A stretch of 64,000 nucleotides of DNA from an uncultured Thermoplasmata archaeon (lineage in GTDB: Archaea; Thermoplasmatota; Thermoplasmata; Lutacidiplasmatales; UBA184). This document shows positions 5,548-45,951 of this stretch, piece by piece. The DNA is taken from the NCBI GenBank assembly GCA_963804525.1, contig CAWDQO010000005.1, forward strand, positions 543,261 through 607,260, given 5' to 3'. A program made the position numbers and the translations under genes. Position 1 is the stretch's first letter. Every line of letters starts with the position of its first letter. A model generated the notes under the pieces. It saw nothing but the letters and a program-made list of their open reading frames with translations. It was not told the origin of the DNA and ran no database searches.

Positions 5548-5670
5548 GGTGGGGACGCGAGCCGTTTTTCCGGCGGCCGGAACGGCGGAAATCCGGGCGG
5601 ACGACGCGGGGTCGCCACGGCGGGAGATGCGGCCGTACGTTAGCGTACAAACGTCGGGTCTGTGGAAAGG

Positions 5671-5676
5671 TTATCT
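5671..5676 (+). promoter_or_regulatory. TATA-like box (GGTTATCT) 25 nt upstream of the leaderless leuA start
   Basis: Same GTTTATCT-type motif precedes the Kelch-2 gene (36843) and the hypothetical gene at 50008 at identical spacing. Confidence 0.4.
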
Positions 5677-5700
5677 CGCTCGCGCCGCTCGATGCGCCCG

Positions 5701-6949
5701 ATGCCGGACCGGCAGCTCGTCGAGAATTATCACACGGCCACCGCGAGCCAGCGACGGTTCGCGAAGCCGATCCAGTTCTGGGACGAGACGCTCCGCGACG
5801 GCGAACAGATGCCGGGCGTCCACTTCTCGCCGGAGGAGAAGCTCCGGATCGCCACCGTCCTGAGCGACGTCGGAGTCTCCGTGATCGACGCCGGAATTCC
5901 CGTCGTTTCCCCGGACGAGGCGGCGGCGGTCCGCCGGGTCGCCGGCGCCGGGCTCTCGGCGAAGATCCTCGCCTCGGCCCGCACGGTGCCGGGGGACGTC
6001 GACGCCGTGATCCGGAGCGGCGCCACGCACATCGCGATCTTCGTCGCGGCGAGCGAGGTCCATCTCCGGTACAAGCTGAAGATGACCCAGGACGAGGTCG
6101 TCGCGGCCTCGCTCGCGACCGTCCGCCAGGCGAAGGACGCCGGACTCCACGTCGCGTTCGTGACCGAGGACACGGTCCGGGCCCCGTTCGACTTCGTGGA
6201 GCGCCTCTATACGGAGGTCAAGAACGCCGGCGCCGACCGGCTCGTCCTCTCCGACACGGTCGGGATCATGACCCCGCTCACGTTCCGCTGGTACCTGGAA
6301 GAGTTCGCGCGAAGGGTCCGTCCGACCGACTGGTCGGTCCACTGCCACAACGACTTCGGCCTCGCGGTCGCGAACACGCTCACCGCGTGCGAGGTCGGGG
6401 TCACGGCCCCCCACGTCTGCGTCAACGGCCTCGGCGAGCGGGCGGGGAACGCTTCGCTCGAAGAGGTCGTCGTCGCGCTCGAGTCGCTGTACCAGGTGTC
6501 CACGGGGATCCGGACCGACCGGCTCTACGAGCTTTCCCGGCTCGTCGAGGAGATCTCCGGTGTCCCGATCCCGCCGAACAAGGCGCTCGTCGGGTACAAT
6601 TCGTTCAGCCACGAGGCGGGGATCCACACCCACGGGGTGCTCGCCCACACGCTGACGTACGAGCCGCTGCAGCCGGAGGTCGTCGGGCGTCACCGCCAGA
6701 TGATCCTCGGCAAGCACACCGGGAAGGCGGCCCTCGTCGAGAAGCTGAAGGAGCGGAACGTGACGGCCACCGACCCGCTCCTCGCAGAACTCCTCCGTCG
6801 GGTCAAGGAGGGCGGGGAGGCTCGGGGAAAGGAGCAGCTGGGAGCGTTCCTCGCGGAGTACCGGTCGCTGTTCGAGCACCCCGGGCATCTCCGACGCCGA
6901 GTTCTGGCAGATGGTGGTCGACGCGGGAATCCCCTTGGAGGCTGCATGA
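5701..6949 (+). CDS. leuA: 2-isopropylmalate/citramalate synthase family (LeuA/CimA, short form without regulatory domain); frame interrupted near 6877-6887
   Basis: FWDETLRDGEQ, HCHNDFGLAVANTL, GLGERAGNASLEEV, SHEAGIHTHGV. In frame +1 the C-terminus ...ISDAEFWQMVVDAGIPLEAA ends with TGA overlapping the leuC ATG. As written, the sequence reads through into leuC in frame via an Arg-rich tail. Confidence 0.75.
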
Positions 6950-8232
6950 GCGCGAACGGAGGCCACGGAGCGACCCTTGCCGAGAAGATCCTCGCCCGGG
7001 CGAGCGGACTCGAAACGGTCGTCCCCGGACAGATCATCGAGGGACAGGTCGACCTCGCGATGATGCACGAGCAGGGGGCGCAGACGGTCGGTCCGTTCCA
7101 CGAGATGGGCGCGACGGAGGTCTGGGACCCCGAACGGGTCGTCATCGCCATCGACCACTGGGTCCCGGCGTCGACCGAGGGGGCCGCCGTCCTGCACCGG
7201 ATCTTGCGCAAGTTCGCCAACGAGCAGCACCTTCCCCACTTCTACGACGTCGGCAACCACGGGATCTGCCACCAGATCCTCGCCGAGAACGGCTGGGTCG
7301 TTCCGGGCGACCTCGCGGTCGGCACCGACTCCCACACGAACATGCTGGGGGCGATGGGCGCCGTCGCGGCCGGGATCGGTCCGACGGAGATGGCCGCGGT
7401 GCTCGCGCTCGGCCGGCTCTGGCTGAAGGTCCCCCCGACGATCCGCGTCAACGTCCGGGGAACGCTCGGTCCGGGCGTCGTGGCGAAGGACCTCGTCCTC
7501 CGGATCCTCGGCGAGGTGAAGACGACCGGCGCGACGTACAAGTCCGTCGAGTACGGCGGTCCGGCGATCGCCGCGCTGTCGATGCCCGAGCGGTTCACGA
7601 TCTGCAACATGACCACCGAGATGGGCGCGAAGTGCGGCATGGTCGCGCCCGACCAGACCACGTACGAGTACCTCGCGAAGATCGCGAAGCACTCGATGCA
7701 CCCGCTCCAGCCGGATGCGGACGCGAAGTACGAGCGGACGATCGACGTCGACCTGACGGGAATGGAACCGATGGTCGCGTGCCCGTACTCCCCGGACAAC
7801 GTCCGCCCGCTCCCCGACGTCGTCCGCGAGCACGTCAAGATCGACCAGGCGTTCCTCGGCTCCTGCACGAACGCCCGCATCGAGGACCTGAGGGAAGGGG
7901 CGGCGCTGATGCGGGGACACAAGGTCCACCCCGGGGTCCGGTTCATCGTCTCTCCGGCGTCGACGGCGATCTACCAGCAGGCGCTCCAGGAGGGGCTCCT
8001 CGAACTGTTCACCGACGCCGGGGCGGTCTTCACGAATTCGAGCTGTTCCGCGTGCTTCGGCGGCAACATGGGGATCATCGCCCCGGACGAGGTCTGCGCG
8101 TCGTCCTCGAACCGGAACTTTCCCGGACGGATGGGCCCCAAGGAGGGCCGGATCTACCTGATGAGCCCGGCCGCGGTCGTCGCGAGCGCCATCAAGGGCG
8201 AGGTCGCCGACCCGCGCGAGGTTCCGGCGTAG
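6946..8232 (+). CDS. leuC: 3-isopropylmalate dehydratase / homoaconitase large subunit (aconitase family)
   Basis: MSANGGHGATLAEKILARASG..., aconitase-family Cys ligand motifs (GSCTNARIEDL, NSSCSACFGGNMG). Confidence 0.9.
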   Translation: MSANGGHGATLAEKILARASGLETVVPGQIIEGQVDLAMMHEQGAQTVGPFHEMGATEVWDPERVVIAIDHWVPASTEGAAVLHRILRKFANEQHLPHFYDVGNHGICHQILAENGWVVPGDLAVGTDSHTNMLGAMGAVAAGIGPTEMAAVLALGRLWLKVPPTIRVNVRGTLGPGVVAKDLVLRILGEVKTTGATYKSVEYGGPAIAALSMPERFTICNMTTEMGAKCGMVAPDQTTYEYLAKIAKHSMHPLQPDADAKYERTIDVDLTGMEPMVACPYSPDNVRPLPDVVREHVKIDQAFLGSCTNARIEDLREGAALMRGHKVHPGVRFIVSPASTAIYQQALQEGLLELFTDAGAVFTNSSCSACFGGNMGIIAPDEVCASSSNRNFPGRMGPKEGRIYLMSPAAVVASAIKGEVADPREVPA

Positions 8233-8241
8233 GAGGGTTCG

Positions 8242-8763
8242 ATGCTCGAGGTCATCGAAGGTCGGGTGTGGGTCCTCGGGGCCGACGTGGACACCGACGG
8301 GATCATCGGCGGAAAGTATCTCACGATCATCGACCCGAACGAGCTGAAGAAGCACGTCTTCGAGATCGCCCTCCCCGAGTTCGCGAAGGGGGCCCGGCCC
8401 GGCGACATCATCGTGGCGGGAGAGAACTTCGGCTGCGGGTCGAGCCGGGAGCACGCCCCCCAGGCGATGCGGGCGATCGGCGTCGGCGCGGTCGTGGCGG
8501 ACTCGTTCGCCCGGATCTTCTTCCGCAACTCGATCAACCTCGGCCTCCCGACGGTCGAGGCCCGGGGGGTCCGGGCGATCTTCGAGCAGGGGGACGTCGC
8601 GCGGATCGAGATGCGCGGCGGCAAGGTCACCAATACCCGCACCGGAGCATCGGTCCAGTTTCCCCCGCTCCCGCACCATCTGCTCGAGCTCCTCGACGTC
8701 GGCGGGCTCGTTCCGAAGGTCCGCCAGGAGCTCGAGGCACGGGCCCGCGGGGCCCCGGCATGA
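8242..8763 (+). CDS. leuD: 3-isopropylmalate dehydratase small subunit
   Basis: 173 aa, GENFGCGSSREHAPQA; GGAGGG Shine-Dalgarno 6 nt upstream. Confidence 0.9.
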   Translation: MLEVIEGRVWVLGADVDTDGIIGGKYLTIIDPNELKKHVFEIALPEFAKGARPGDIIVAGENFGCGSSREHAPQAMRAIGVGAVVADSFARIFFRNSINLGLPTVEARGVRAIFEQGDVARIEMRGGKVTNTRTGASVQFPPLPHHLLELLDVGGLVPKVRQELEARARGAPA

Positions 8764-11602: not shown

Positions 11603-11711
11603 CGCCGTTCGCTCATCGACCCCGGGAGCGCCGGAACCGGCGCCGCTCCGCCGACAAATCGACCCGCACGACCTTCCGGAGTGGTCCGGGACCTTCGGGG
11701 TCCGGTGGCTA

Positions 11712-11718
11712 TTTATAC
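11712..11718 (+). promoter_or_regulatory. TATA box (ATTTATAC) upstream of aglB
   Basis: AT-rich heptamer 46 nt before the ATG at 11765; the upstream in-frame ATG at 11681 lies 5' of it and is therefore rejected as the start. Confidence 0.5.
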
Positions 11719-11764
11719 GGGGCCTAGGTCTCGCGCCGCGCCGTTATCGGAGAGTCGGCGACCG

Positions 11765-14700
11765 ATGGGATTGCCCGAAACCAGCTGGTGGCGCCGCCAT
11801 GGGTGGACCGTCATCATCCTCCTGGGGGCGTTCTCGATCTCCTTCCTGGTTCGCACGCTCTACGTGATCCCGCTGCTCCAGCAGTATGGCCCGATGAACC
11901 TCTTCGCGGGGGGTTCGGACTCGTTCTACCACTACCGCGTCACCGACTACATCATCCTCAACCACCAGAACCTCGGCCTCGACCTCTCGCTCCACTACCC
12001 GTTCGGGGCCGTCAACCCGCGGGAGCCGCTGTTCGACTGGATGAACGCGATCCTCGGGATCCTGTTCGCCCCGGTGTTCGGCGGGGGCGTCAACGGGGCC
12101 CAGATGGCGGGCGCGTGGTTCCTCGACTTCCAGGCCCCGTTCTGGGCCGCGCTCGGCGTCTTCCCGGTCTACCTGATCGGGAAGGAGGTGAGCTCGCGGA
12201 GGATGGGCCTCGTTGCGGCGCTCCTCTATCCGATCGTCGTGGCGAGCATCGACTCCTCGACGTTCGGGTACGCGAACTATCTCTCGTTCTACACGTTCTT
12301 CATCCTCATCGCCCTCTACGCTTACCTACGGACGGTCAAGGCCGCCGGGAGTCGGCGGTGGGTCGAGGACTACCGCCACCCCCGGCAGTTCTGGCCGGCC
12401 CTCAAATCGTACTATCGTCACGAACGTTCGGCCGTGAAATGGGCGGTGTTCACCGGCGTCGCCTTCGGCACCGTGATGTTGGCCTGGCAGGGGTACTCGT
12501 TCCTCGTCGCCGCAATCGTCGTGTTCCTCGCGATCCAGATGATCATCGAGCGGATCCGGCGCGTCGATTCGTTTGGCCTCTACACGCTGACCTGGCTGGT
12601 CGGGCTGATCGGGTTCCCGATGGCGGTCCCGTACTACTACTTCCAAGGGCTCGGGCGGGTCTGGTTCGACCAGCCGGCGCTCGTCTTCTTCGGGGCCCTC
12701 CTCGTCCTCCTGCCGTTCTTCCTCCTCCGCGACACCCCGTGGGTCGTGTCGGTCCCCGCCCTCATCGGCACCGCCGCGATCGCGATCGGCGCGCTGTTCC
12801 TCCTCGACCCGTCCGATTTCACGGCGATCGTGACGGGGCAGGGGTACTTCGTCAAGACACTCGTGTACTCGACGGTCGCCGAGGCGCAGGCGCCGTCGGT
12901 CGACTCGCTCATCCTTGGCTACGGCGTGGTGACGTTCTTCCTCGCGTTCGTGGGCCTCGCCCTGTACGCTTGGCGTACGGTCCGGGACCGGTTCCGCCGG
13001 GTCCAGGTGATGTTCATCGTCTTCGCGATCCTCTCGATCTACCTCCCGCTCTCGGCCGCCAAGTTCTTCTTCATCGGTTCGGCCGGGTTCGCGCTCCTCC
13101 CCGCCGAGGCGATCGTCCGGGCGCTCGATGTCGGCGGGTTCCCGGCCCTTCGGCGAAACATCACGTCGTTGTCCGACCGGCGGAGCCAGCTCAACGCGTT
13201 CCGGCGGTCGATCAAGGGCCGCCACATCCTCGTGATGGCCCTCGTCGTCGTGATCATGGTCCCGAACGTCTGGTACTCGATCGACGCCGGGATCCCCTAC
13301 AACGACAAGGGGACGTACTCGACCCAGATCTACAACACCCTCCCGCCTCCGCTCCGCGTCGCCCCGGCCAACGCGTCGTCGTTCTACCTCGGCGCGGCCG
13401 GCACGGAGCTTGACACCCCGAACCAGTACAACGAGGCCGGCTACAATTGGCTCGCCACGCAGGATACGCAGCTCGCCGAACCGCAACGTCCGGCGTTCAT
13501 CAGCTGGTGGGATTACGGGTTCCAGGCGGTCGCGGAGGGGGACCATCCCACCGTCGCCGACAATTTCCAGAACGGGATCGACCCCGCGGGGAATTTCCTC
13601 CTCGCGCAGAACGAGTCGAACGCGATCGCCGTGCTCGCCACGACCCTCCTGTCCGCCGAGCAGGCGCGGAGCCACGACCCGTACCTCCCGAGCACCCTCA
13701 ACGGGATCCTCGCCCGGGACGGCGTCAACGTCGCGACGGTCCACAACCTGATGGTGAACACCTCGGCCGACATCCCGATGGTCATCGCTCATCCCGAGCG
13801 GTACCTCCCCGTCGACCCGAACAACCTCGACAGCCAGAACGCGATGTACGACACGATGTCGTACTACCTCGCGACCGCGCTCTCCACCAACGGGGTCGCC
13901 CAGGTGTACAACGACATCCAGGCGTACACGGGCTGGTCGATCCGGTACACCATGGTCGATTCGCGGCTCTTCCCCTTCAGCGGCTCGAACACCGGGATCT
14001 TCTACGCCCCGGCCGACCTCACCGACCGGGTGATCGGGGCGGGGGGCGCGCCGACCGCCTACTACACCCTCTCCGTCCTCGGCTCCGACGGCAACACCTA
14101 CTCCCCCTCCGACGTCCCGGCGGGGGTCACCGCGGTCCAGTACAACATCGACTACCTCCCGGCGTTCTACTCCTCCATGATCTACCGGATCTACGTCGGG
14201 TACAACGGGAGCGACATCGGCGCGTCCAGCCAGGGGATCCCGGGACTGACGAACAACGCCGTCGGGGCCGACCCGGTGGAGCCGGGTTGGATGCTCTCCC
14301 ACTTCCAGGTCGTGTACCGCACGGCGTACGAGTGCCCCCAGGCGAACGCGACGGACGGCTCGAGCTGCTTCTCCGCGTACAACCTGCCCCAGGCGGAGGC
14401 GCTCGCCAAGGCCCAGAACGGCACGGCCGACACCTCGACGAGCTCGTACTTCGGCGGCGGCGAGTCGATGCTCGAGTACTATCCGGGCCAGACGATGACC
14501 GGGACCGTTCAGCTCCCGGACGGCACGCCGGTCTCCGGGGCCCGCGTGACGGTCTACGACAGCTGGGGGATCCCCCACATGACGACCGTGACGGGGTCGA
14601 ACGGCACCTACTCGGTCATCCTCCCGCCGGGCGCCGACCGCGTGAACGTCACGACGGGCGCGCTCGACGGTCTCACCCAGGCGGGCGCGACGACCCTCGC

Positions 14701-17700
14701 GGCCCTCAACGTCACGGTCCCGAACGCGACGGGACTCTCCCTCGACGCCCCCACGATGGTGAGCCCGATCGTGATCCACCCCGCGACGGTGAGCGGGTTC
14801 GTCTACTGGAACACCGCCAACAACTCGACGTTCGTGCGGGCTACCGACCCGGTCCTCTCGGGGGCCGTCGCGACCCTGTATGGCCCGGGGCTCGTCAACC
14901 GGAGCGCGACCACCGACGCGAGCGGAGCGTTCCAGATGCTCGACGTTCCCCCGGGCGTCTACAACTTCACGGTCACCTACCGCGGGGGGTCGTTCAGCGA
15001 GCCGAACGTCTACGCGCTCCCGGGAAAGACGGCGAATGAGACGGTCGGCCTCACCCCGGGGACGCTCAACGGCCACGCGGACTTCTCGAACGGGTTCGGC
15101 GTCGCGAACGCGGCGGTGACCGTCTCGACCGCCGCCGGGCTCTTCACCACCGCCACCGCCGATACCGACGGAAACTTCACCGTCCGGAACCTGCCGCCCG
15201 GCAACTACTCGGTGTCGGTCATGGCCCCGGGAGTCTCGCTCGGCTCCCTCGGGAACGCGATCTCGATCCCGCAGGCCGGTTCGTCGGCCCAACTGAACGT
15301 CACGCTCGTTCCGCTCGTCGCCGTCGACCAGCAGGTCCTCCTGAACGGCAACCCGGTCGCCGGCATCCCGGTCCGGTTCACCGAATTGACGGTTCCCTCG
15401 GCTACCGCCCCCGTGCCGACGAACGCTTCGTCGGCCGCGCCGCCCGGGGCGACCGCCGCCAAGGCGAACAGTTCGGTGTTCCTGACCGGCCCGGATGGTC
15501 TCGTCCGCGCCACCCTCCCCCTCGGGAACTACTCGGTCTACGCCTTCGGGCTCAACGGGACGTCCTGGTACGCGGGATTCTCGACCGCCTACCTGAACGC
15601 CTCCGGCGGGAACTCCCTCCCGCCCGTCGACCTCTCCACCGCCGTCGAACTCTCCGGCTCGGTGAGCGGGTCGCCGTCGACGAGCGCCGGGCCGGCGAGC
15701 ACGGAGGTGACGGTGTTCGACAGCGCCGGGCACCAGGTCTCCACGTTCGCGAACATCACCCAGTCGTACGCGATCTGGCTCCCCGCGGGGCGGTACACGG
15801 TCCTCGCGACGGCGAGCGTGCCGAACTCGACCGCGCCTCCCGTCGTGTTCCTCTCGGCGGTCTCGGTCCCGTACTCGACGACGCTGCCGATCTCCCTCGG
15901 ACCCGGGGAGCTCGTCCGCGGCGTCGTCGCGAGCCCCTCGAGCGTCGGGAGCGCCCCGTACCCGGCCGCGGGCGCGCTCGTGACGGTCACCGAGCTTCCC
16001 ATCAACGCCACGGTCTCGGCCGTGGCCGACGGGAACGGCAACATCACCCTCGCGCTCCCGGCGATCGTCCCGTCCGGCACCTCGTTCTGCGTCGCCGCGA
16101 CCGCGACCGGGTTCCGACCGTATCGGGCGTGCGACTTCACGGCGAGCGAGCTCGCTTCGCTCGGGGAGATTCCCCTCGGGCTCTCCCCGGTCCCGCTGAA
16201 CTTCACCGTCGTCGGCCTGCCGGGCGGAACGAAGGTCACGGTCAACTTCACCGCCCTCACGAGCCCGGCGGAGTCGACCGTGAAGGTCGGTGGCCCGACG
16301 TTCGCGTTCTCGATCGTTCCCGGCAGCTACCGGATCACCGCGTGGGCGAAGTCCCCGAACGGGACCGGTCTCCTGCTCCCCCCGAATTCGCTCAACCTGA
16401 CGATCCCCCTCGGGACGAGGGGGACGAACGTCACGCTCACGATTCTCTCCCAGGTCCGTGCGGTCGGGCATCTCGTCCTGCCCACGGACGTCACCAATAG
16501 CTCGGTCGTCCTCCGGCTGAGCTCGCCGAAGATGAACGTGACCGTCAACGGTGCGACGTTCGAGTCGGGGTTCTTCCTCGCGCCGGGGACGTACGCCGTC
16601 TACGCGACCGCTCCGAACAGCGGCAACGGGACGGTGGCCACGATGACGAGCGTGGTCGTGAACGCGACGGGCCACCTGTCGAAGGCGATCTCGCTCACGA
16701 CGCTCGGTGTCCCCGTCGTCGGCTCGCTCGTGACCGGGACCGGAGCCCCGCTCAACGCGACGGTCGTCCTCAACCTCTCGGGTCCGTCCGGGGTCGCGAC
16801 GCAGGTCACGGCGACCGGCGGCCATTTCGTCCTCACGCTCCCTCCGAACGCGACCTACCCGGTCCGGGCGAACGCCACCGTCCTCCTGCCGGAATCGGGC
16901 GGGACCGCGTACGTCGCACTCTCGGTTGCCCCGACGTTCGTCGGATGCGTCGTCGGAGACGGCGCGAACGCGACCTGCACCGTGCCGTTCGTCACGACGA
17001 CGATCCCGACGCCGGTCGACGGCACGCTGAAGGCCGCGGGGTTCTCCTCCTCCCTCCCCGGCACCGTGGAGTTCATCGGCCCGTACCCGTCGGCGAACGC
17101 CACGTTCGTCAACGCGAGCGCCGGCGCGTTCGCCACGACGCTCCTCCCGGGGAACTATTCGATCTACGCGACCGGGGGCGCCGGAGTTCCGTACGCCAAC
17201 GTTTCCTCCCTCATCGTGACCACGACCGCCGCGCCGTCGCTGACGATCCACCTCCTCCCGACGTGGACCGACGTCGTCACGATCGTCCCCCCGTCGGGTT
17301 CGCTCGCCCAATTCGCCACCCTCTCCATCACCGCCCCGGGGGGAACGGTCGTGCAATTCTCCGGTGAGCCGGCCGGGACGCCCATCCCGGTGGAGCTCCC
17401 CGCGGGATTGTACACGGTCGCGAGCTCAACGACGGGAGTGCCGTACGGGGTCGTGGTCAACGCGACCGCTTCGGTCTCGGTCCCGCTGCTCGACGGAAAT
17501 GCGGCCACGTCGCTCGCGCTCGCCTACGAATTCACCTCGACCGTCGCGTTCACGACCGTCGCCCCCACCACCGTCACCGTTCCCGCCGGTTCGACCGTCA
17601 CGTTCGCGTTCACGATCCGGAACACCGGAAACCAGCCGGAGAACCTGACGTTCCTCGGCAGCCCCGCGTTCTGGAACTTCACCTTCCTCCCGGCGTCGGT

Positions 17701-18394
17701 CCACCTCGGCGTCCTCGGTCGGAACAGCTCGGTCGGCGGCGAGGTCCGGATCATCGTGCCCGCGGGAACCGACACCCTCCAACCCTCGGTCCAGCTGGAG
17801 GCCGTGAACGCCGTCACGCAGGCCCCGGTCGGCTTCGCTCAGCCGGTGCCGACGATCGACATCACCCCGGTCTTGGGCCTCACGCTCGGGGCCGCGACCT
17901 CGGTCGGGGCGGCGGTCGGCCCGTACGAGGCGACGATCCCGTTCTACGTCCAGAATACCGGCAACCTCGTCGAGGGGACGACGCTCACCGTCGTCGACTC
18001 GGCCGCCCTCGCCGCCATCGGCTGGACGGCGGTCATCAACAAGGGGCCGACCCTGGCCCCGGAGCCGAACGAGCTCGCCCCCGGTTCCAACTCGACGTTC
18101 GCGGTCCGGTTGACGTCCCCGCTTCACCAGGCGCTCCCGCCCGGGTCCGTGACGGTCTCGGCGACGGTGAGCAACCTCTCCGGGGGACTCTCGCGCTCGC
18201 TCACCCTCTCCGTGCCGAAGCTCACGGTCGCCCTCAACAATTCGACCGCGCTCGTGACCGGACCGAACCTCGGTTCCCCGAGCCCGTACCCCAGCTGGCT
18301 CGTACCGGTCCTCGTGTTCGTTCCGGCGGCCGCCTTCCTGATCGTCGCGGGCGTCTACCGGTGGATGCGGACCCGCAGGTGGACCCGGCGATGA
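11765..18394 (+). CDS. aglB: oligosaccharyltransferase AglB/STT3 (~700-aa catalytic multi-TM core) fused to a ~1,500-aa C-terminal extension of repeated beta-sandwich (CarboxypepD_reg/Ig-like) domains and a terminal TM helix; 2,209 aa
   Basis: ~13 TM N-terminal domain, WWDYG catalytic motif (ISWWDYGFQA), DK-like motif YNDKGTY. Repeats of type G.V.LPDGTPVSGARVTVYDSWG...GSNGTYSVILPPGADRVNVT. C-terminal anchor WLVPVLVFVPAAAFLIVAGVYRW. No frame breaks over 6.6 kb. Confidence 0.85.
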   Translation: MGLPETSWWRRHGWTVIILLGAFSISFLVRTLYVIPLLQQYGPMNLFAGGSDSFYHYRVTDYIILNHQNLGLDLSLHYPFGAVNPREPLFDWMNAILGILFAPVFGGGVNGAQMAGAWFLDFQAPFWAALGVFPVYLIGKEVSSRRMGLVAALLYPIVVASIDSSTFGYANYLSFYTFFILIALYAYLRTVKAAGSRRWVEDYRHPRQFWPALKSYYRHERSAVKWAVFTGVAFGTVMLAWQGYSFLVAAIVVFLAIQMIIERIRRVDSFGLYTLTWLVGLIGFPMAVPYYYFQGLGRVWFDQPALVFFGALLVLLPFFLLRDTPWVVSVPALIGTAAIAIGALFLLDPSDFTAIVTGQGYFVKTLVYSTVAEAQAPSVDSLILGYGVVTFFLAFVGLALYAWRTVRDRFRRVQVMFIVFAILSIYLPLSAAKFFFIGSAGFALLPAEAIVRALDVGGFPALRRNITSLSDRRSQLNAFRRSIKGRHILVMALVVVIMVPNVWYSIDAGIPYNDKGTYSTQIYNTLPPPLRVAPANASSFYLGAAGTELDTPNQYNEAGYNWLATQDTQLAEPQRPAFISWWDYGFQAVAEGDHPTVADNFQNGIDPAGNFLLAQNESNAIAVLATTLLSAEQARSHDPYLPSTLNGILARDGVNVATVHNLMVNTSADIPMVIAHPERYLPVDPNNLDSQNAMYDTMSYYLATALSTNGVAQVYNDIQAYTGWSIRYTMVDSRLFPFSGSNTGIFYAPADLTDRVIGAGGAPTAYYTLSVLGSDGNTYSPSDVPAGVTAVQYNIDYLPAFYSSMIYRIYVGYNGSDIGASSQGIPGLTNNAVGADPVEPGWMLSHFQVVYRTAYECPQANATDGSSCFSAYNLPQAEALAKAQNGTADTSTSSYFGGGESMLEYYPGQTMTGTVQLPDGTPVSGARVTVYDSWGIPHMTTVTGSNGTYSVILPPGADRVNVTTGALDGLTQAGATTLAALNVTVPNATGLSLDAPTMVSPIVIHPATVSGFVYWNTANNSTFVRATDPVLSGAVATLYGPGLVNRSATTDASGAFQMLDVPPGVYNFTVTYRGGSFSEPNVYALPGKTANETVGLTPGTLNGHADFSNGFGVANAAVTVSTAAGLFTTATADTDGNFTVRNLPPGNYSVSVMAPGVSLGSLGNAISIPQAGSSAQLNVTLVPLVAVDQQVLLNGNPVAGIPVRFTELTVPSATAPVPTNASSAAPPGATAAKANSSVFLTGPDGLVRATLPLGNYSVYAFGLNGTSWYAGFSTAYLNASGGNSLPPVDLSTAVELSGSVSGSPSTSAGPASTEVTVFDSAGHQVSTFANITQSYAIWLPAGRYTVLATASVPNSTAPPVVFLSAVSVPYSTTLPISLGPGELVRGVVASPSSVGSAPYPAAGALVTVTELPINATVSAVADGNGNITLALPAIVPSGTSFCVAATATGFRPYRACDFTASELASLGEIPLGLSPVPLNFTVVGLPGGTKVTVNFTALTSPAESTVKVGGPTFAFSIVPGSYRITAWAKSPNGTGLLLPPNSLNLTIPLGTRGTNVTLTILSQVRAVGHLVLPTDVTNSSVVLRLSSPKMNVTVNGATFESGFFLAPGTYAVYATAPNSGNGTVATMTSVVVNATGHLSKAISLTTLGVPVVGSLVTGTGAPLNATVVLNLSGPSGVATQVTATGGHFVLTLPPNATYPVRANATVLLPESGGTAYVALSVAPTFVGCVVGDGANATCTVPFVTTTIPTPVDGTLKAAGFSSSLPGTVEFIGPYPSANATFVNASAGAFATTLLPGNYSIYATGGAGVPYANVSSLIVTTTAAPSLTIHLLPTWTDVVTIVPPSGSLAQFATLSITAPGGTVVQFSGEPAGTPIPVELPAGLYTVASSTTGVPYGVVVNATASVSVPLLDGNAATSLALAYEFTSTVAFTTVAPTTVTVPAGSTVTFAFTIRNTGNQPENLTFLGSPAFWNFTFLPASVHLGVLGRNSSVGGEVRIIVPAGTDTLQPSVQLEAVNAVTQAPVGFAQPVPTIDITPVLGLTLGAATSVGAAVGPYEATIPFYVQNTGNLVEGTTLTVVDSAALAAIGWTAVINKGPTLAPEPNELAPGSNSTFAVRLTSPLHQALPPGSVTVSATVSNLSGGLSRSLTLSVPKLTVALNNSTALVTGPNLGSPSPYPSWLVPVLVFVPAAAFLIVAGVYRWMRTRRWTRR

Positions 18395-30274: not shown

Positions 30275-30943
30275 TTATCCCGGACTCCCCGGGGTGTGCT
30301 TCGACGGGTCGATCGTCTGGAGGTAGACGTCCCCCGGGCCCTCCACCCGGAGCGCCTCGAAGCTGAGCGCGTGGCCGACGAGCCCCCCGCCGAGCGGCTG
30401 GTTGTACGCGCGGACCGAGACCGACGCGTCCTTCATCACGAGGGCGCCGTGGTCGACGTCCATCGCCTCCTTCTCGGCGAGGGTGAACTTGAGGATGTTC
30501 CCGTGTCCCTGGAATGCGAACGTGCCGGGGCCGGTGAGCCGGTCCATCCAGAACCCGATCATCCGGCCGACCCGTCCGGTCCCCGCGATGTAGAATGTGT
30601 CGTAGCCGATCGTGTTCGTCGCGAGGAGGAGCGAGTGTTCCGCGACATCGACCGCCTTGCCGGGCTCGAGCATCACGACCCGGGTCTCGCCGGGGCGGAA
30701 CCGGCTGAAGGCCACGTAGCCGGGACCGGTATACTCGTGGAGCTGGAACGGGAGCCCCCCGAACAGCGTCCGCTTCATGGCCCCGAGGACCCCGCCCTGG
30801 GTCAGCCAGCGGTACCCGAACCCGATCGTCGGGTCGGAGAACACCATCAGCCCCCCCTCGCAGAAGATCTGCTCCCCGGGGCCGAGGGTCGCGAGCGCGA
30901 CCGGGATGAAATCGCCTTTGATGTCGACCTGCATCGGGGTCAC
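30275..30943 (-). CDS. AIM24/TIGR00266 (DUF124)-like protein, paralog 1 (intact)
   Basis: 222 aa; shared motifs with two upstream paralogs (..L.PGE......G.M......, LTGPG, G.GNIL, GGGL.G). Confidence 0.6.
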   Translation of the reverse strand: MTPMQVDIKGDFIPVALATLGPGEQIFCEGGLMVFSDPTIGFGYRWLTQGGVLGAMKRTLFGGLPFQLHEYTGPGYVAFSRFRPGETRVVMLEPGKAVDVAEHSLLLATNTIGYDTFYIAGTGRVGRMIGFWMDRLTGPGTFAFQGHGNILKFTLAEKEAMDVDHGALVMKDASVSVRAYNQPLGGGLVGHALSFEALRVEGPGDVYLQTIDPSKHTPGSPG

Positions 30944-31603
30944 TCTCCGCTGTGGACGAGGACGGTCCCGGGGCCGAACAGGTCAAGGACCGGGAGGGGA
31001 GCCGCGCCGGTCGAGGCCATCGCCGGGCTCGCGAGCCAATCGATCCGGAGCTGGACAGTATTCGCCGAGGCGAGCAACCCGGCGACGCTCGTGCGCATCG
31101 CCTCGCCCGGTTTGAGGTCGAACGACAGGATGTTCCCGTACAGACTGGTAAACGATCGTGCCGGGTCCGGTGAGCTCGTCGGCGAACAGGTAGGTGACCG
31201 GCCGCTGGCCGTTCGCATCCGGGTAGGGCGCCGGGTACTGCGCGAGGACCATCGGGTAGTACCGTACCGTCTCGTCGAAGCAGATCAGGTGGCCGTCCCG
31301 CAACCGGAGCGTCTGTCCCGGAGCGAGCTGGAGGACCCGGACCTCCCCGCCCTTGTCGCGCGAGAACGAGACGTGGCCCGGACCCTCGAACTCGGCGAAG
31401 AAGTAGCTCTCGTCGTTGTCCCCGAGCGCGTGCATCCCCATCAGGTGGCCCCGACTGACGCCGAGCGACTTCATCGTCCGCCGGTGCACCTGGACCTGGT
31501 GCTCCTTGTAGAGCATGAGGCCGTGGGAGGCGAGCACCTTCTCCCCCGGGCGGAGCGTGACGAGGACCGCGGGGGCGATCCCCCCGACCGAATCGGCCTG
31601 CAT
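30940..31603 (-). CDS. AIM24/TIGR00266-like protein, paralog 2; single-nt indel near 31141-31147
   Basis: Frame A ...ADELTGPGTIVYQS continues in frame B LYGNILSFDLKPGEAMR...VLVHSGE*; stop overlaps the paralog-1 ATG. Confidence 0.55.
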
Positions 31604-31609
31604 CGCTAC

Positions 31610-31798
31610 CTACGTCACCGGGCGGTCGTCGACGGCGAGCGCGAACGCCCCCCCGCAGTACTCGCAGCGGGCGTACCCGCCCTCGATGTTCTTCGCCGCG
31701 ATCTTCGCTCCGCACCCCTTGCAGCTCAGGTCCTGCAGGGAGGCGCGGCTGATCGTGACCTCGGTCCGCTTCTTGACGAACTCTTCCGGGATCGGCAT
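31610..31798 (-). CDS. small Zn-ribbon protein (62 aa)
   Basis: MPIPEEFVKKRTEVTISRASLQDLSCKGCGAKIAAKNIEGGYARCEYCGGAFAL; GGGAGGAGAG Shine-Dalgarno 5-8 nt upstream; embedded between AIM24 paralogs 3 and 2. Confidence 0.55.
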   Translation of the reverse strand: MPIPEEFVKKRTEVTISRASLQDLSCKGCGAKIAAKNIEGGYARCEYCGGAFALAVDDRPVT

Positions 31799-31814
31799 CC
31801 GATTCTCTCCTCCC

Positions 31815-32463
31815 TCAGAAATGGGCGACCTTCGGGTCGATGCTCTGGACCGCGACCTTCCCCGGCCCGGTGAGCTCGAGGACCTCGATACGCTTCGAGC
31901 TTGCCGAGGAGACCCCCGCCGAACGGAAGGTTCACCGTCTTGGCGGTGACCCCGCCGTCCTTCCAGAGGAGCCCGCCGAGGTCGACGTGGATCACCTCGC
32001 GCGGGGCGAGGGTCATCGAGATGATGTTGCCGTAGCCGTGGATCGCGACCTTGCCGGGGCCGGTGAGGCGGTCGAGCCACAAACCGGCCATCCGGCCGGG
32101 GCGGTGGGTCCCCTTCACGTATTCCATCCCGTACTGGATGTGGGCGTCGGCGCACAGGAGCGACCCCTCGGCGACGTCGATCGTCTGGTTCGGCACGAGG
32201 TCGAGGATCCGGACCTCCCCGGTCCCGTCGCGCGAGAGGCCGACATGCCCGGGGCCGGTAAACTCCGTGAGGAAGTACGGAATGCCGCCCACGGTCGTCC
32301 GTTCGAGCGTCTGGAGCATTCCCCCACCCTGAATCGTCTTCCGGGAGACGCCCACGGGAGGGTCCTTGAACAGGAGAATCCCGTGCTCGCAGTAGATCGA
32401 TTCGTTCGGGGCGAGCGTGGCGAGCACGGTCGGCACGAGCCCGGGCAAACACTCGAGTTCCAC
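31815..32463 (-). CDS. AIM24/TIGR00266-like protein, paralog 3; indel in or next to the C5 run 31914-31918
   Basis: Reading with one G fewer gives PFGGVSSASSKRIEVLELTGPGKVAVQSIDPKVAHF*, collinear with the paralog-1 C-terminus. The ORF as written drifts into Arg-rich junk. Confidence 0.55.
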
Positions 32464-32502
32464 GGTCGTCGGGTCGGCGAACCGCTCGGTACTATGAGAG
32501 GC

Positions 32503-44289: not shown

Positions 44290-44982
44290 ATGGCGCGGAC
44301 CGGCGGACTTGGCCGGTCCGAGGCCGAGTTCGACCGCGAGGCGGCGGGGTACGACCGGACCGCCGCCCAGACGATGCCGGGGTACGACGAGCTCCACCAG
44401 ACCCTCCTCTGGGGGATCCCGTTCTCCCCGACCCGCGGGTTCCGGGTCCTCGAGCTCGGGGTCGGGACCGGCACGTTCACCGCCCGGCTCCTGGCCCGCT
44501 ACCCGCACGCCGAGCTCGTCGGGGTCGACCTCTCCCGGCGGATGATCGCGCTTGGCCGGGCGAAGCTGCGGCGGTACCGCGACCGGGTGACGCTCCTCCA
44601 GGGGGACCTCGCCGAGTTCCCGGACGCCGAGAAGTACGACGCGGTCGTCTCGTCGCTCGCGATCCACCACCTCGCCGACGGGGCGAAGTGGAAGCTGTTC
44701 CGGAAGGTCCGCCGCTCGCTCGCCCCGGGGGGCTACTTCGGGGACGCCGACGACCACCTTCCCGAGGACCCCGTGTTCGATTCCCGGTTCGGCCAGGTCG
44801 CCCAGGAGCTGGTCGGCCACGGGACGTCCCAGAGCCTCCAGAGGGTCTGGCACGAGCACGAGGCGTTCGACCACCCGTGCGCCCTCTCCGACGAGGTCCG
44901 TCACCTGAAGTCGGCCGGTTTCTCCCACGTCGACGTTCCCTGGCGGTTCTTCGGCCAGGCGGTTGTCTGGGCGTACCGGTAG
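44290..44982 (+). CDS. class I SAM-dependent methyltransferase
   Basis: VLELGVGTGTFTARL motif I, DAVVSSLAIHH; clean 230-aa ORF; GATAAGG TATA-like element 27 nt upstream. Confidence 0.8.
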   Translation: MARTGGLGRSEAEFDREAAGYDRTAAQTMPGYDELHQTLLWGIPFSPTRGFRVLELGVGTGTFTARLLARYPHAELVGVDLSRRMIALGRAKLRRYRDRVTLLQGDLAEFPDAEKYDAVVSSLAIHHLADGAKWKLFRKVRRSLAPGGYFGDADDHLPEDPVFDSRFGQVAQELVGHGTSQSLQRVWHEHEAFDHPCALSDEVRHLKSAGFSHVDVPWRFFGQAVVWAYR

Positions 44983-45007
44983 GCCCGGGGACGCCCGCGA
45001 CGGAAGC

Positions 45008-45017
45008 CTTTTCATCT
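45008..45017 (+). promoter_or_regulatory. T-rich element (CTTTTCATCT) ~25 nt upstream of the tRNA-His 5' end; could also be the oligo-T terminator of the upstream methyltransferase
   Basis: Only T-run in this GC-rich intergenic region. Confidence 0.3.
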
Positions 45018-45039
45018 CGCCGCGACCTCGCTCGGGTGC

Positions 45040-45147
45040 GGCCGGGATGGGGTAGTTTGGCCTATCCTGGGGGACTGTGGATCCCTCGACCCGGGTTCAA
45101 ACGAGGACGGGGCCGACCCCCGTTCTCGGAGACTCTCGGTCCCGGCC
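45040..45147 (+). tRNA. tRNA-His (anticodon GTG) with a candidate 32-nt intron in the T-arm (after nucleotide 60, ~45103-45134)
   Basis: 8-bp acceptor stem GGCCGGGA/TCCCGGCC including G-1:C73 (His hallmark). Conserved U8, A14, G15:C48, G18G19, A21, G26. Anticodon stem GGGGA/TCCCT with loop CTGTGGA (U33, GTG, G37). T-stem CCGGG + loop TTCAAAC, with 3' strand CTCGG found only after a 32-nt GC hairpin insert. No CCA encoded. Confidence 0.55.
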
Positions 45148-45951
45148 CTACCGGGTCTTCCGGCGACGGGACGCTCCCGTCGCCGGCTTCTTCGGAGGGG
45201 AGCCGGGGGGCGGAACGATCCGTTCGAGCGCCTCGGGAAGCTCGGAGAGGGAGTAGTCGGCCCACGCGGCCCCCCAGCGGGTCAGGTCGTCGGGGCTGAG
45301 GGTCCAGCTCTGGAGCCGGGTCGCCCGGGCGACCGAGATAACCCCCTCGACCGATTGGGCAGCCTCGAGGTCGAACCGGGAGTCGCCGACGAGGATGAGC
45401 GGGGCTCCGGGGTACCTTCGACGGTACTCCGCGAGGTGCTCCCGTTTTGTGCCCTGCCCGGAGCCGAGGACGTCCTCGAACCAGTACCGGAGCCCCTCGC
45501 GCTCCAGGACGAGGTCGGCCATCTCCCGTTCGGCGCCGGTCGAGACGGCGAGGGTCCACTTCGCCGCGGCGAGCCGCTTCAGCGTCCTCGGCATCTCCGG
45601 GAACGGCTTCGCGATGGCGTACGCCTCCTGGACCTTCCGCATGTGGAACGTCCGGGCGACCGAGCGCCGGTCGTCCTCGGAGGCGTTCCGGTACAATTGG
45701 GAGAGCTGCGCCTCGAACGGCATCCCGGTCGTGGCGAGGTAGTGGAGGCGGCCCTCCAGTTCCGGGGTGCCGAACGTCTCGAACAGGAGCTTCCCCGCGA
45801 GCTCGCTGATCGGACCCATGTCGTCGAGGAGGGTCCCGTCGACGTCGAAGATGACCGCCCCCCGCTCGAGCCGCCTCGGCTCCACGGTCGGTTCCTCCCG
45901 GATCACCGCCCGGGAGATCTCGGCGAACTGGGAGGTCGCCGGTCCGACCAT
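45148..45951 (-). CDS. HAD-superfamily hydrolase (phosphatase)
   Basis: Motif I VIFDVDGTLLDD; motif IV LILVGDSRFDLEAA. Start chosen at MVGPATSQ (rc 45949-45951); the longer ORF N-terminus is junk. Confidence 0.7.
   Translation of the reverse strand: MVGPATSQFAEISRAVIREEPTVEPRRLERGAVIFDVDGTLLDDMGPISELAGKLLFETFGTPELEGRLHYLATTGMPFEAQLSQLYRNASEDDRRSVARTFHMRKVQEAYAIAKPFPEMPRTLKRLAAAKWTLAVSTGAEREMADLVLEREGLRYWFEDVLGSGQGTKREHLAEYRRRYPGAPLILVGDSRFDLEAAQSVEGVISVARATRLQSWTLSPDDLTRWGAAWADYSLSELPEALERIVPPPGSPPKKPATGASRRRKTR

Follow-up and report, generated by a model that had tools for sequence, protein, structure and literature searches.

How can a tRNA gene whose T-loop is split by a hairpin serve as a source of functional tRNA, and at which bonds should the extra segment leave the precursor? 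This question is raised by the histidine tRNA gene, tRNA-His(GTG), located at positions 45040–45147 (+ strand) of a 64,000-nucleotide stretch of DNA from an uncultured Thermoplasmata archaeon (GenBank assembly GCA_963804525.1, contig CAWDQO010000005.1, positions 543,261–607,260 of the forward strand), which is called here the window. The T-loop of this gene is divided by a GC-rich hairpin insert of 32 nt. According to the data collected, this is a real, conserved and almost certainly functional tRNA-His gene with a bulge-helix-bulge (BHB) intron between nucleotides 59 and 60. Its assignment as a functional gene of a Thermoplasmata lineage nearest to Lutacidiplasmatales (GTDB UBA184), the tRNA of which is spliced from a precursor with the 59/60 intron, can be made with high confidence. 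The window contains 70.8 % GC, and its archaeal context is evident from genes encoding Topo VI A/B and aEF-1beta. The parts of the interrupted gene are as follows.

45040–45101, + strand: 5′ exon, delimited by ARAGORN on the spliced sequence and by pairwise conservation
45077–45079, + strand: anticodon GTG (His) within the 7-nt loop CTGTGGA, found by ARAGORN
45091–45095, + strand: 5′ strand of the T-stem
45096–45101, + strand: T-loop nucleotides 54–59
45102–45133, + strand: intron (CGAGGACGGGGCCGACCCCCGTTCTCGGAGAC), 32 nt, tRNA position 59/60, placed by BHB enumeration and by relatives
45134–45147, + strand: 3′ exon (TCTCGGTCCCGGCC) with U60 (45134), the 3′ strands of the T-stem (45135–45139) and of the acceptor stem (45140–45146), and C73 (45147)

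Starting with G-1 (45040), the 5′ exon passes through the acceptor 5′ strand (GCCGGGA), the D-arm, the anticodon arm (GGGGA-CUGUGGA-UCCCU), a 4-nt variable region and the 5′ part of the T-arm (CCGGG-UUCAAA); after the GC-rich insert the gene continues as (U)CUCGG-UCCCGGC-C. The marks of a class I cloverleaf, i.e. U8, A14, G18G19, G53-C61, T54 T55 C56 and A58, are all present, solely with the insert removed. The eighth acceptor pair, G-1(45040):C73(45147), is encoded in the genome and kept in all parsed relatives. The CCA end is not encoded after C73 in the window; among 196 distinct relatives it is encoded in 12. From sequence inspection, a preliminary description of this locus had proposed a tRNA-His(GTG) with an 8-bp acceptor stem and an intron of about 32 nt at a non-canonical position of the T-arm, all canonical positions being satisfied once 45103–45134 are removed. 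These claims are borne out: with that segment taken out, ARAGORN calls a 76-nt tRNA-His(GTG) cloverleaf with a 7-bp acceptor stem, to which G-1:C73 is added, and a 4-nt variable region, and the GC-rich hairpin is not only present but kept at the same site in relatives. The T-loop of the molecule so obtained is TTCAAAC. Joining 45101 to 45134 instead gives the T-loop UUCAAAU with an intact T-stem, so that the two products differ at nucleotide 60 alone, and the choice between them is a matter of a single base.

In order to place the junctions, every pair of 5′ and 3′ junctions within 45040–45150 was enumerated with a threshold of 3 of 4 pairs for the central helix of the BHB motif. The sole candidate combining long flanking helices with a normal tRNA has its 5′ exon end at 45101 (A59) and its 3′ exon start at 45134. 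The outer helix (h) is in this case the 5-bp T-stem, CCGGG/CUCGG, and the remaining elements are listed below (a slash marks the predicted cut).

45096–45099, + strand: exon strand of the central helix (H), U54 U55 C56 A57 (UUCA), pairing with 45128–45131
45128–45131, + strand: intron strand of the central helix, GGAG
45100–45102, + strand: 5′ bulge A58 A59 / C, predicted cut between 45101 and 45102
45132–45134, + strand: 3′ bulge A C / U, predicted cut between 45133 and 45134
45103–45127, + strand: intron hairpin (h′) with arms 45103–45112 (GAGGACGGGG) and 45118–45127 (CCCCGTTCTC) and the loop CCGAC, according to RNAfold

As is well known, cleavage by EndA, the splicing endonuclease of archaea, falls between the second and the third bulge nucleotide, and the two cleavage sites are predicted from this rule. 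Both 3-nt bulges are present in the window, and H consists of three standard pairs (U·G, U-A and C-G) plus the A57·G mismatch, i.e. 3 of 4. The mismatched G, which is the first base of GGAG, can pair with C45102 instead. In the enumeration, h′ was found as the 10-bp pair GAGGACGGGG/CCCCGUUCUC, and RNAfold folds the insert as a GC-rich hairpin of 10–11 bp.

Comparative evidence comes from relatives. One genome per GTDB species was scanned for the anticodon loop and T-arm half of tRNA-His, followed after 8–38 nt by the matching 3′ strand. The same tRNA-His with an intron at the same site was registered in at least 119 species-level genome contigs, almost all titled ‘Thermoplasmata archaeon’, the matches listed including UBA184, UBA61 and the AcS/SubAcS metagenome-assembled genomes (MAGs) of Sheridan et al. 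In the positive-control scan of the metagenome collection the intron-containing gene also turned up on at least 120 contigs. The parsed comparison set comprises the 196 distinct relative sequences mentioned above. Their introns are all different and range in length from 16 to 37 nt, 32 nt being observed in 144 of them. Conservation of the two parts of the gene is unequal: pairwise identity reaches 98.2 % for 5′ exons (152 relatives) and only 69.7 % for 32-nt introns, and chance is excluded on the basis of this disproportion. Variation of the 5′ exon is confined to the D-arm and its loop, so few variants being present that 191 Thermoplasmata-type sequences share 15 distinct 5′ exons and 3 distinct 3′ exons. 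Of 107 distinct relatives taken from genomes, 102 have exactly the 3′ exon of the window.

Position 45134 (nucleotide 60) is T in all 196 sequences, and the first intron base, 45102, is G, T, C or A in 125, 32, 23 and 16 of them, respectively. The 3′ bulge reads ACU in 128. Within the central helix U54 faces G in 163 and A in 33 sequences, U55 faces A in 180 and G in 16, and C56 pairs with G without exception. Position 57 is paired in 128 relatives (A-U in 126 and G-C in two) and mismatched in 68, the window included; both G57-C cases (L016 and L126) are compensatory double changes. In the 59/60 register a perfect 4-bp H is therefore formed in 128 of the 196 sequences and 3–4 of 4 pairs in all of them. 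Approximately one third of the set (68/196), to which the window belongs, has a relaxed motif with a 3-bp central helix.

Covariation was estimated for an ungapped alignment of 78 distinct genome-derived sequences with 32-nt introns. The last three bases of the intron strand of H (-GAG, columns 39–41), complementary to T-loop nucleotides U54–C56, are invariant or at least 90 % conserved. For the whole BHB structure 93 % of cells are paired versus at most 63 % in slid registers. In h′ 90 % of cells are paired, and seven of ten pairs have changed on both sides. The covariation score was 0.196 versus 0.078 for shuffles, and none of 500 shuffles reached the observed value. One more register was tried but not adopted: if the intron begins with a base paired to the initial base of the H intron strand, H shrinks to 3 bp and the bulge reads AAA. 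Of the 78 sequences 60 are compatible with this register, against 51 for the A57-U pair, and so are 36 of the 68 relaxed cases, which is not decisive. Probably this arrangement is the ground-state fold of the relaxed variants and leaves the cleavage sites unaffected.

These data bear first of all on the junction 60/61, favoured in the preliminary description, with which 45103–45134 would be removed, the spliced junction would read GGGUUCAAAC-CUCGG and the mature T-loop would be UUCAAAC. Its removal also gives a valid cloverleaf, as said above. Nucleotide 60 is generally not strongly conserved in tRNAs, so that the variability of 45102 alone would be insufficient as an argument against this placement. 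Nevertheless, the pair composed of a 5′ exon end at 45102 and a 3′ exon start at 45135 falls below the 3-of-4 threshold for the central helix: H would consist of U55–A58 against GAGA, with 2 of 4 pairs counted by eye, and the pair G53-C61 would have to open. The lack of a BHB structure at the proposed junctions had been named beforehand in the preliminary description as a refuting outcome, and for the stated junctions this outcome is the one obtained. A shift by one base in the 5′ direction restores 3–4 of 4 pairs in every one of the relatives, and the register of this helix is fixed by the G57-C compensation. Besides that, the 60/61 placement would ascribe to otherwise invariant exons a varying base (45102) and leave the invariant T at 45134 to the intron. 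The junction 60/61 is thus very unlikely, and both the geometry of the motif and the 196 relatives move the intron one base upstream, to 59/60 (45102–45133).

Even less probable is that the locus is a tRNA pseudogene inactivated by insertion, with a separate intact tRNA-His doing the work. It is in line with this idea that one MAG has two different copies of the gene. The exons, though, are near-invariant in the 191 Thermoplasmata-type sequences, and the splice motif is kept by compensatory change while every intron differs. A promoter-like element upstream of the gene is conserved as well, and no intron-less joined copy of the same exons was found among 241 million metagenome records. Finally, tRNAs for all 20 amino acids were reported by Sheridan et al. 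in their type MAG with tRNAscan-SE 2.0.5 in archaeal mode (PMC9287336). The two copies just mentioned (L092 and L115 of MAG SMAG_U6363) both contain introns and differ in exons and introns alike; they represent either a mixed bin or two gene copies. In another MAG, JOPF185, an identical tRNA-His gene is present on two contigs (L021 and L105).

Two further models deserve practically no credence. On the raw sequence ARAGORN gives as its sole call, with or without the intron option, an uninterrupted 91-nt ‘tRNA-His’ at 45041–45131 with a long variable arm and the T-arm ACGGG/GCCGACC/CCCGT; tRNA-His is a class I tRNA, the ‘variable arm’ of this model holds a perfect T-arm half (CCGGG-TTCAAA), its ‘T-loop’ GCCGACC lacks T54-Psi55-C56, its T-arm and acceptor 3′ strand are made of the hypervariable intron (16–37 nt, about 70 % identical), and the invariant TCTCGGTCCCGGCC (45134–45147) is left outside the gene. 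The other model, with the insert retained as an extra T-loop hairpin of the mature tRNA, may appeal to the stability of this hairpin in RNAfold, but selection for the hairpin only would not explain the conservation of GAG, of the A next to it and of U60, which is invariant, just as the BHB motif requires, and 32 additional nucleotides would disrupt the elbow formed by the T-loop and D-loop, which is required by RNase P, the CCA-adding enzyme and the ribosome. Two other assumptions on the nature of the insert were also rejected. The ribozyme core of a self-splicing group I or group II intron takes up some 200 nt or more, whereas the insert has 32 nt and Rfam intron families were unmatched; an intron-encoded C/D-box small RNA (sRNA) was discarded by eye, 32 nt being too short and box C being absent.

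The behaviour of ARAGORN, together with the fact that Rfam registered no tRNA at the gathering threshold in the window and none at E ≤ 10 in 44900–45300, agrees with the earlier expectation that default scanners would mishandle this gene: the former misfolds and the latter misses it. Pipelines unaware of archaeal BHB motifs will list tRNA-His as lacking or aberrant, and their estimates of genome completeness may come out too low for an order abundant in acid soils. Since the archaeal mode of tRNAscan-SE gave Sheridan et al. tRNAs for the full set of 20 amino acids, BHB-aware tools probably detect this gene already. This mode includes a search for non-canonical introns (PMC8450103).

Several observations weigh against the 59/60 BHB intron as described. 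The motif of the window is a relaxed BHB variant, because A57·G is mismatched and the BHB conformer is not the minimum free energy (MFE) structure. Its energy is −21.6 versus −27.4, i.e. 5.8 kcal/mol above the MFE, and the MFE structure predicted by RNAfold contains a 6×6 internal loop with an 11-bp hairpin rather than BHB. Euryarchaeal EndAs are mostly of the alpha4 or alpha′2 type, and these types were reported to be poor on relaxed motifs (PMC5829648). A second, divergent tRNA-His gene may also exist elsewhere in the genome, as the two copies in SMAG_U6363 illustrate.

The insert was foreseen to be possibly an artefact of assembly, and this is excluded, since nine independent metagenome assemblies carry it, one of them in the form of a diverged intron of 31 nt. 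Without any change of residue, 12 public contigs encode the adjoining methyltransferase (44290–44982), and ten of them were examined. Nine contain the tRNA in full, insert included, and L007, the tenth, stops inside the intron. In L001 the intron has an A-to-G change converting an A-U pair into G-U. The diverged locus (L005) has flanks about 85 % identical to those of the window, identical exons and the 31-nt intron GAGAGACGGGAACCAACCCGUCGCUUGAGAC, which in the 59/60 register forms a perfect 4-bp H, UUCA/UGAG. Gene calls in L001 (ENA ERZ25039465 contig_91401) are fragmented in comparison with near-identical JGI contigs, Topo VI, CoaBC and succinyl-CoA ligase being split into short pieces, which suggests that this assembly is rich in indels.

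The following course of events can be proposed. Transcription would start from the putative promoter of the BRE/TATA type (BRE, transcription factor B recognition element) at about −30 and give a pre-tRNA, the T-loop of which is interrupted after nucleotide 59 by the 32-nt intron. In this precursor the BHB motif would be composed of the T-stem (h), nucleotides 54–57 with GGAG (H), the bulges AA/C and AC/U, and the 10-bp hairpin (h′). EndA is expected to cut both bulges, at 45101/45102 and 45133/45134, whereupon the ligase RtcB would join the 2′,3′-cyclic phosphate and 5′-OH ends, the predicted spliced junction (59/60) being GGGUUCAAA-UCUCGGUCCCGGCC. RNase P, leaving G-1 in place, 3′ processing enzymes and the CCA-adding enzyme would then complete a 76-nt tRNA-His with the T-loop UUCAAAU and the G-1:C73 pair. 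What the sequences themselves document is the gene and its conservation, the geometry of the motif, the covariation of the intron helix and the conserved promoter-like element; transcription, cleavage at the exact bonds, ligation and aminoacylation of this tRNA-His are deduced, and the enzymatic steps are taken from established archaeal tRNA splicing (PMC4090602, PMC5829648). Expression, splicing and charging find indirect support in purifying selection on the exons and in the upstream element. No EndA or RtcB domains were detected by the Pfam scan among the 29 open reading frames (ORFs) of the window, and tblastn with EndA of M. jannaschii found nothing in the window or in the relative loci examined. 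A search for EndA homologues in 5.8 billion proteins yielded, among the matches listed, Methanococci and Methanobacteria only.

One can speculate, rather tentatively, that the 59/60 intron is an ancient and obligate feature of possibly the sole tRNA-His gene across a whole radiation of Thermoplasmata, made up of Lutacidiplasmatales and their neighbours, and that it has counterparts in the MAGs that bear the labels Hadarchaeota and Bathyarchaeota. If so, an EndA with broadened specificity or a new arrangement of subunits would be implied in this uncultured soil lineage, because about one third of the motifs are relaxed and the alpha4 and alpha′2 enzymes reportedly cut such motifs poorly. There might also be a selective reason to keep an intron in an essential gene, e.g. 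the order in which splicing and the action of RNase P at G-1 take place, or shielding of the T-arm against integrases. Regardless of this, 196 distinct introns at one fixed site between invariant exons represent a natural experiment, in which the GAG complement of T54–C56, the A of the 3′ bulge and U60 are constrained and other positions, such as the first intron base, vary freely. The fourth central pair is dispensable in about one third of the sequences, which provides a testable prediction on the substrate range of Thermoplasmata EndA. No new mechanism is revealed by this set of introns.

The surroundings of the gene include the following features.

45004–45015, + strand: promoter-like element AAGCCTTTTCAT (BRE/TATA-like), −36 to −25 from G-1
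45148–45951, − strand: convergent gene of a HAD-family hydrolase (Pfam HAD_2/Hydrolase; a 267-aa call in near-identical contigs)

The consensus of the upstream element in relatives, derived from 105 distinct upstream regions, is RAAACCTTTTCWT. In these regions positions −36/−35 are occupied by A in about 89 % of cases and positions −31 to −28 by T in 82–98 %, against a background of about 70 % GC. By its position and conservation the element can be considered as a putative promoter of the BRE/TATA type. The start coordinate 45008, given previously for the tRNA, lies inside this element. On the opposite side the stop codon of the HAD gene (45148–45150, CTA on the + strand) abuts C73, the 3′ end of the tRNA, and in 153 of the 196 distinct relatives C73 is likewise followed at once by CTA, which represents the TAG stop codon of a gene in convergent orientation. 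A perfect 12-bp inverted repeat with a 3-nt loop (CCGGCGACGGGA-CGC-TCCCGTCGCCGG), followed by CTTCTTC, occupies 45160–45186, 13 nt downstream of the tRNA and within the 3′ coding end of the HAD gene. It drives spurious Rfam matches to sRNAs and snoRNAs (small nucleolar RNAs). As a conserved terminator this hairpin was rejected, its conservation being absent in relatives. The locus matched nothing in a plasmid search, and a generic scan of the window and the collected relative loci for other T-loop BHB introns returned false positives in coding sequences only.

Some more distant genes of the window are worth mentioning. An ORF of 2263 aa at 11603–18394 (+ strand), unusually long for an archaeal AglB, has an N-terminal STT3/AglB oligosaccharyltransferase domain followed by CarboxypepD_reg-like repeats. 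At 5644–8763 (+ strand) the frame 5644–8232 joins HMGL-like, HCS_D2 (homocitrate/isopropylmalate-synthase type) and aconitase large-subunit domains, and the small subunit (Aconitase_C) follows at 8233–8763; the former may be a synthase-dehydratase fusion or an artefact of the stop-to-stop definition of ORFs. Three tandem genes of the AIM24 family are located at 30275–32502 (− strand).

As to the lineage, AcS5-58 and AcS13-54 come closest among the species representatives listed, with flanks that share about 75 % identity over 4.3 kb. Both are Lutacidiplasmatales MAGs from acidic forest soil with 67–71 % GC (PMC9287336). An intron at this site of tRNA-His is likewise present in MAGs that bear the labels Methanomassiliicoccales (L087), Thermoplasmatales (L091), Hadarchaeota (L016, L036, L077) and Bathyarchaeota (L069). 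A strict 4-bp motif, parsed or read by eye, was found in L016, L036, L077, L087, L091 and L126, the latter titled ‘uncultured archaeon’. Shorter or longer 59/60 introns, of 16–37 nt where fully parsed, are observed in L016, L036, L077, L126, L069, L079, L087, L091, L096 and L114, and in L069 and L079 the 5′ half seems to have a further interruption. Three contigs (L038, L107 and L079) titled ‘bacterium’ or ‘Candidatus Acidiferrales bacterium’ carry archaeal-type tRNA-His with a BHB intron and are probably mislabelled or mis-binned archaeal DNA.

The review of Yoshihisa 2014 (PMC4090602) includes 59/60 in its list of non-canonical intron positions. The term ‘lineage-restricted’, applied initially to such introns, is apt only in part: the site was already catalogued and is used in tRNA-His of MAGs labelled as several archaeal phyla. 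A literature search, with subscription journals and GtRNAdb outside its scope, found no paper on this particular intron. The nearest precedent is ARMAN-2 (Ca. Micrarchaeum), in which 59/60 introns of pre-tRNA-Cys(GCA) and pre-tRNA-Pro(GGG) have relaxed and strict motifs, respectively (Fujishima et al. 2011, PMC3239211). The site of insertion, the T-stem as outer helix and the T-loop bases in the central helix are common for both systems, and strict (hBHBh′) and relaxed forms are both found among the relatives of the window too. Unlike ARMAN-2, the isoacceptor is here His, the host belongs to Thermoplasmata rather than to DPANN, and the intron is fixed across more than 100 species between invariant exons. 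The EndA of ARMAN, of the epsilon2 type, has broad specificity.

In its geometry relative to a 5-bp stem and 7-nt loop the intron is the exact T-arm counterpart of the canonical 37/38 intron of the anticodon loop, where loop nucleotides 1–4 enter the helix, the 5′ bulge is made of nucleotides 5–6 with the first intron base, and the 3′ bulge takes the last loop nucleotide as its third base. By analogy, the same EndA and RtcB may be expected to act on it. The difference lies in the site itself: the exon strand of H is composed of the universally conserved T54-Psi55-C56-R57, and therefore the 3′ end of the intron must read YGAR. Unlike the 37/38 site, the T-arm is not examined by standard tRNA models or by the intron option of ARAGORN.

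With tRNAscan-SE 2.0, 25 non-canonical introns were registered in 144 euryarchaeal genomes, and Table S7 of the same work lists six in three genomes of Methanomassiliicoccales and one in five genomes of Thermoplasmatales (PMC8450103). The intron of the window belongs to the same class, with the reservation that this table gives counts alone and that Lutacidiplasmatales are absent from its data set. In the Methanomassiliicoccales-labelled L087 the same site of tRNA-His has a 37-nt intron with a perfect BHB, which is also its MFE fold. A euryarchaeal case with experimental data on cleavage is the pre-tRNA-Glu of Methanopyrus kandleri with a relaxed HBh′ intron at 20b/21 (Kaneta et al. 2018, PMC5829648). 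It shares with the window a relaxed BHB outside the anticodon loop and the question of EndA without the ‘specific loop’; it differs in that its intron is in the D-loop, lacks one bulge and was assayed for cleavage, while the window intron, known from sequence, is in the T-loop and has one mismatch in H. The multi-intron tRNAs of Thermoproteales and Thaumarchaeota likewise contain BHB-dependent introns, at many positions including the T-arm, but there they are numerous, mobile-looking and variable between species, in contrast to the single stably inherited site of the window lineage. Compared with all these systems, the 59/60 intron of tRNA-His is a well-supported but fairly ordinary representative of an archaeal tRNA intron type already known, and mild surprise is caused only by its fixation throughout an order and by the occurrence of a relaxed central helix in a euryarchaeal lineage.

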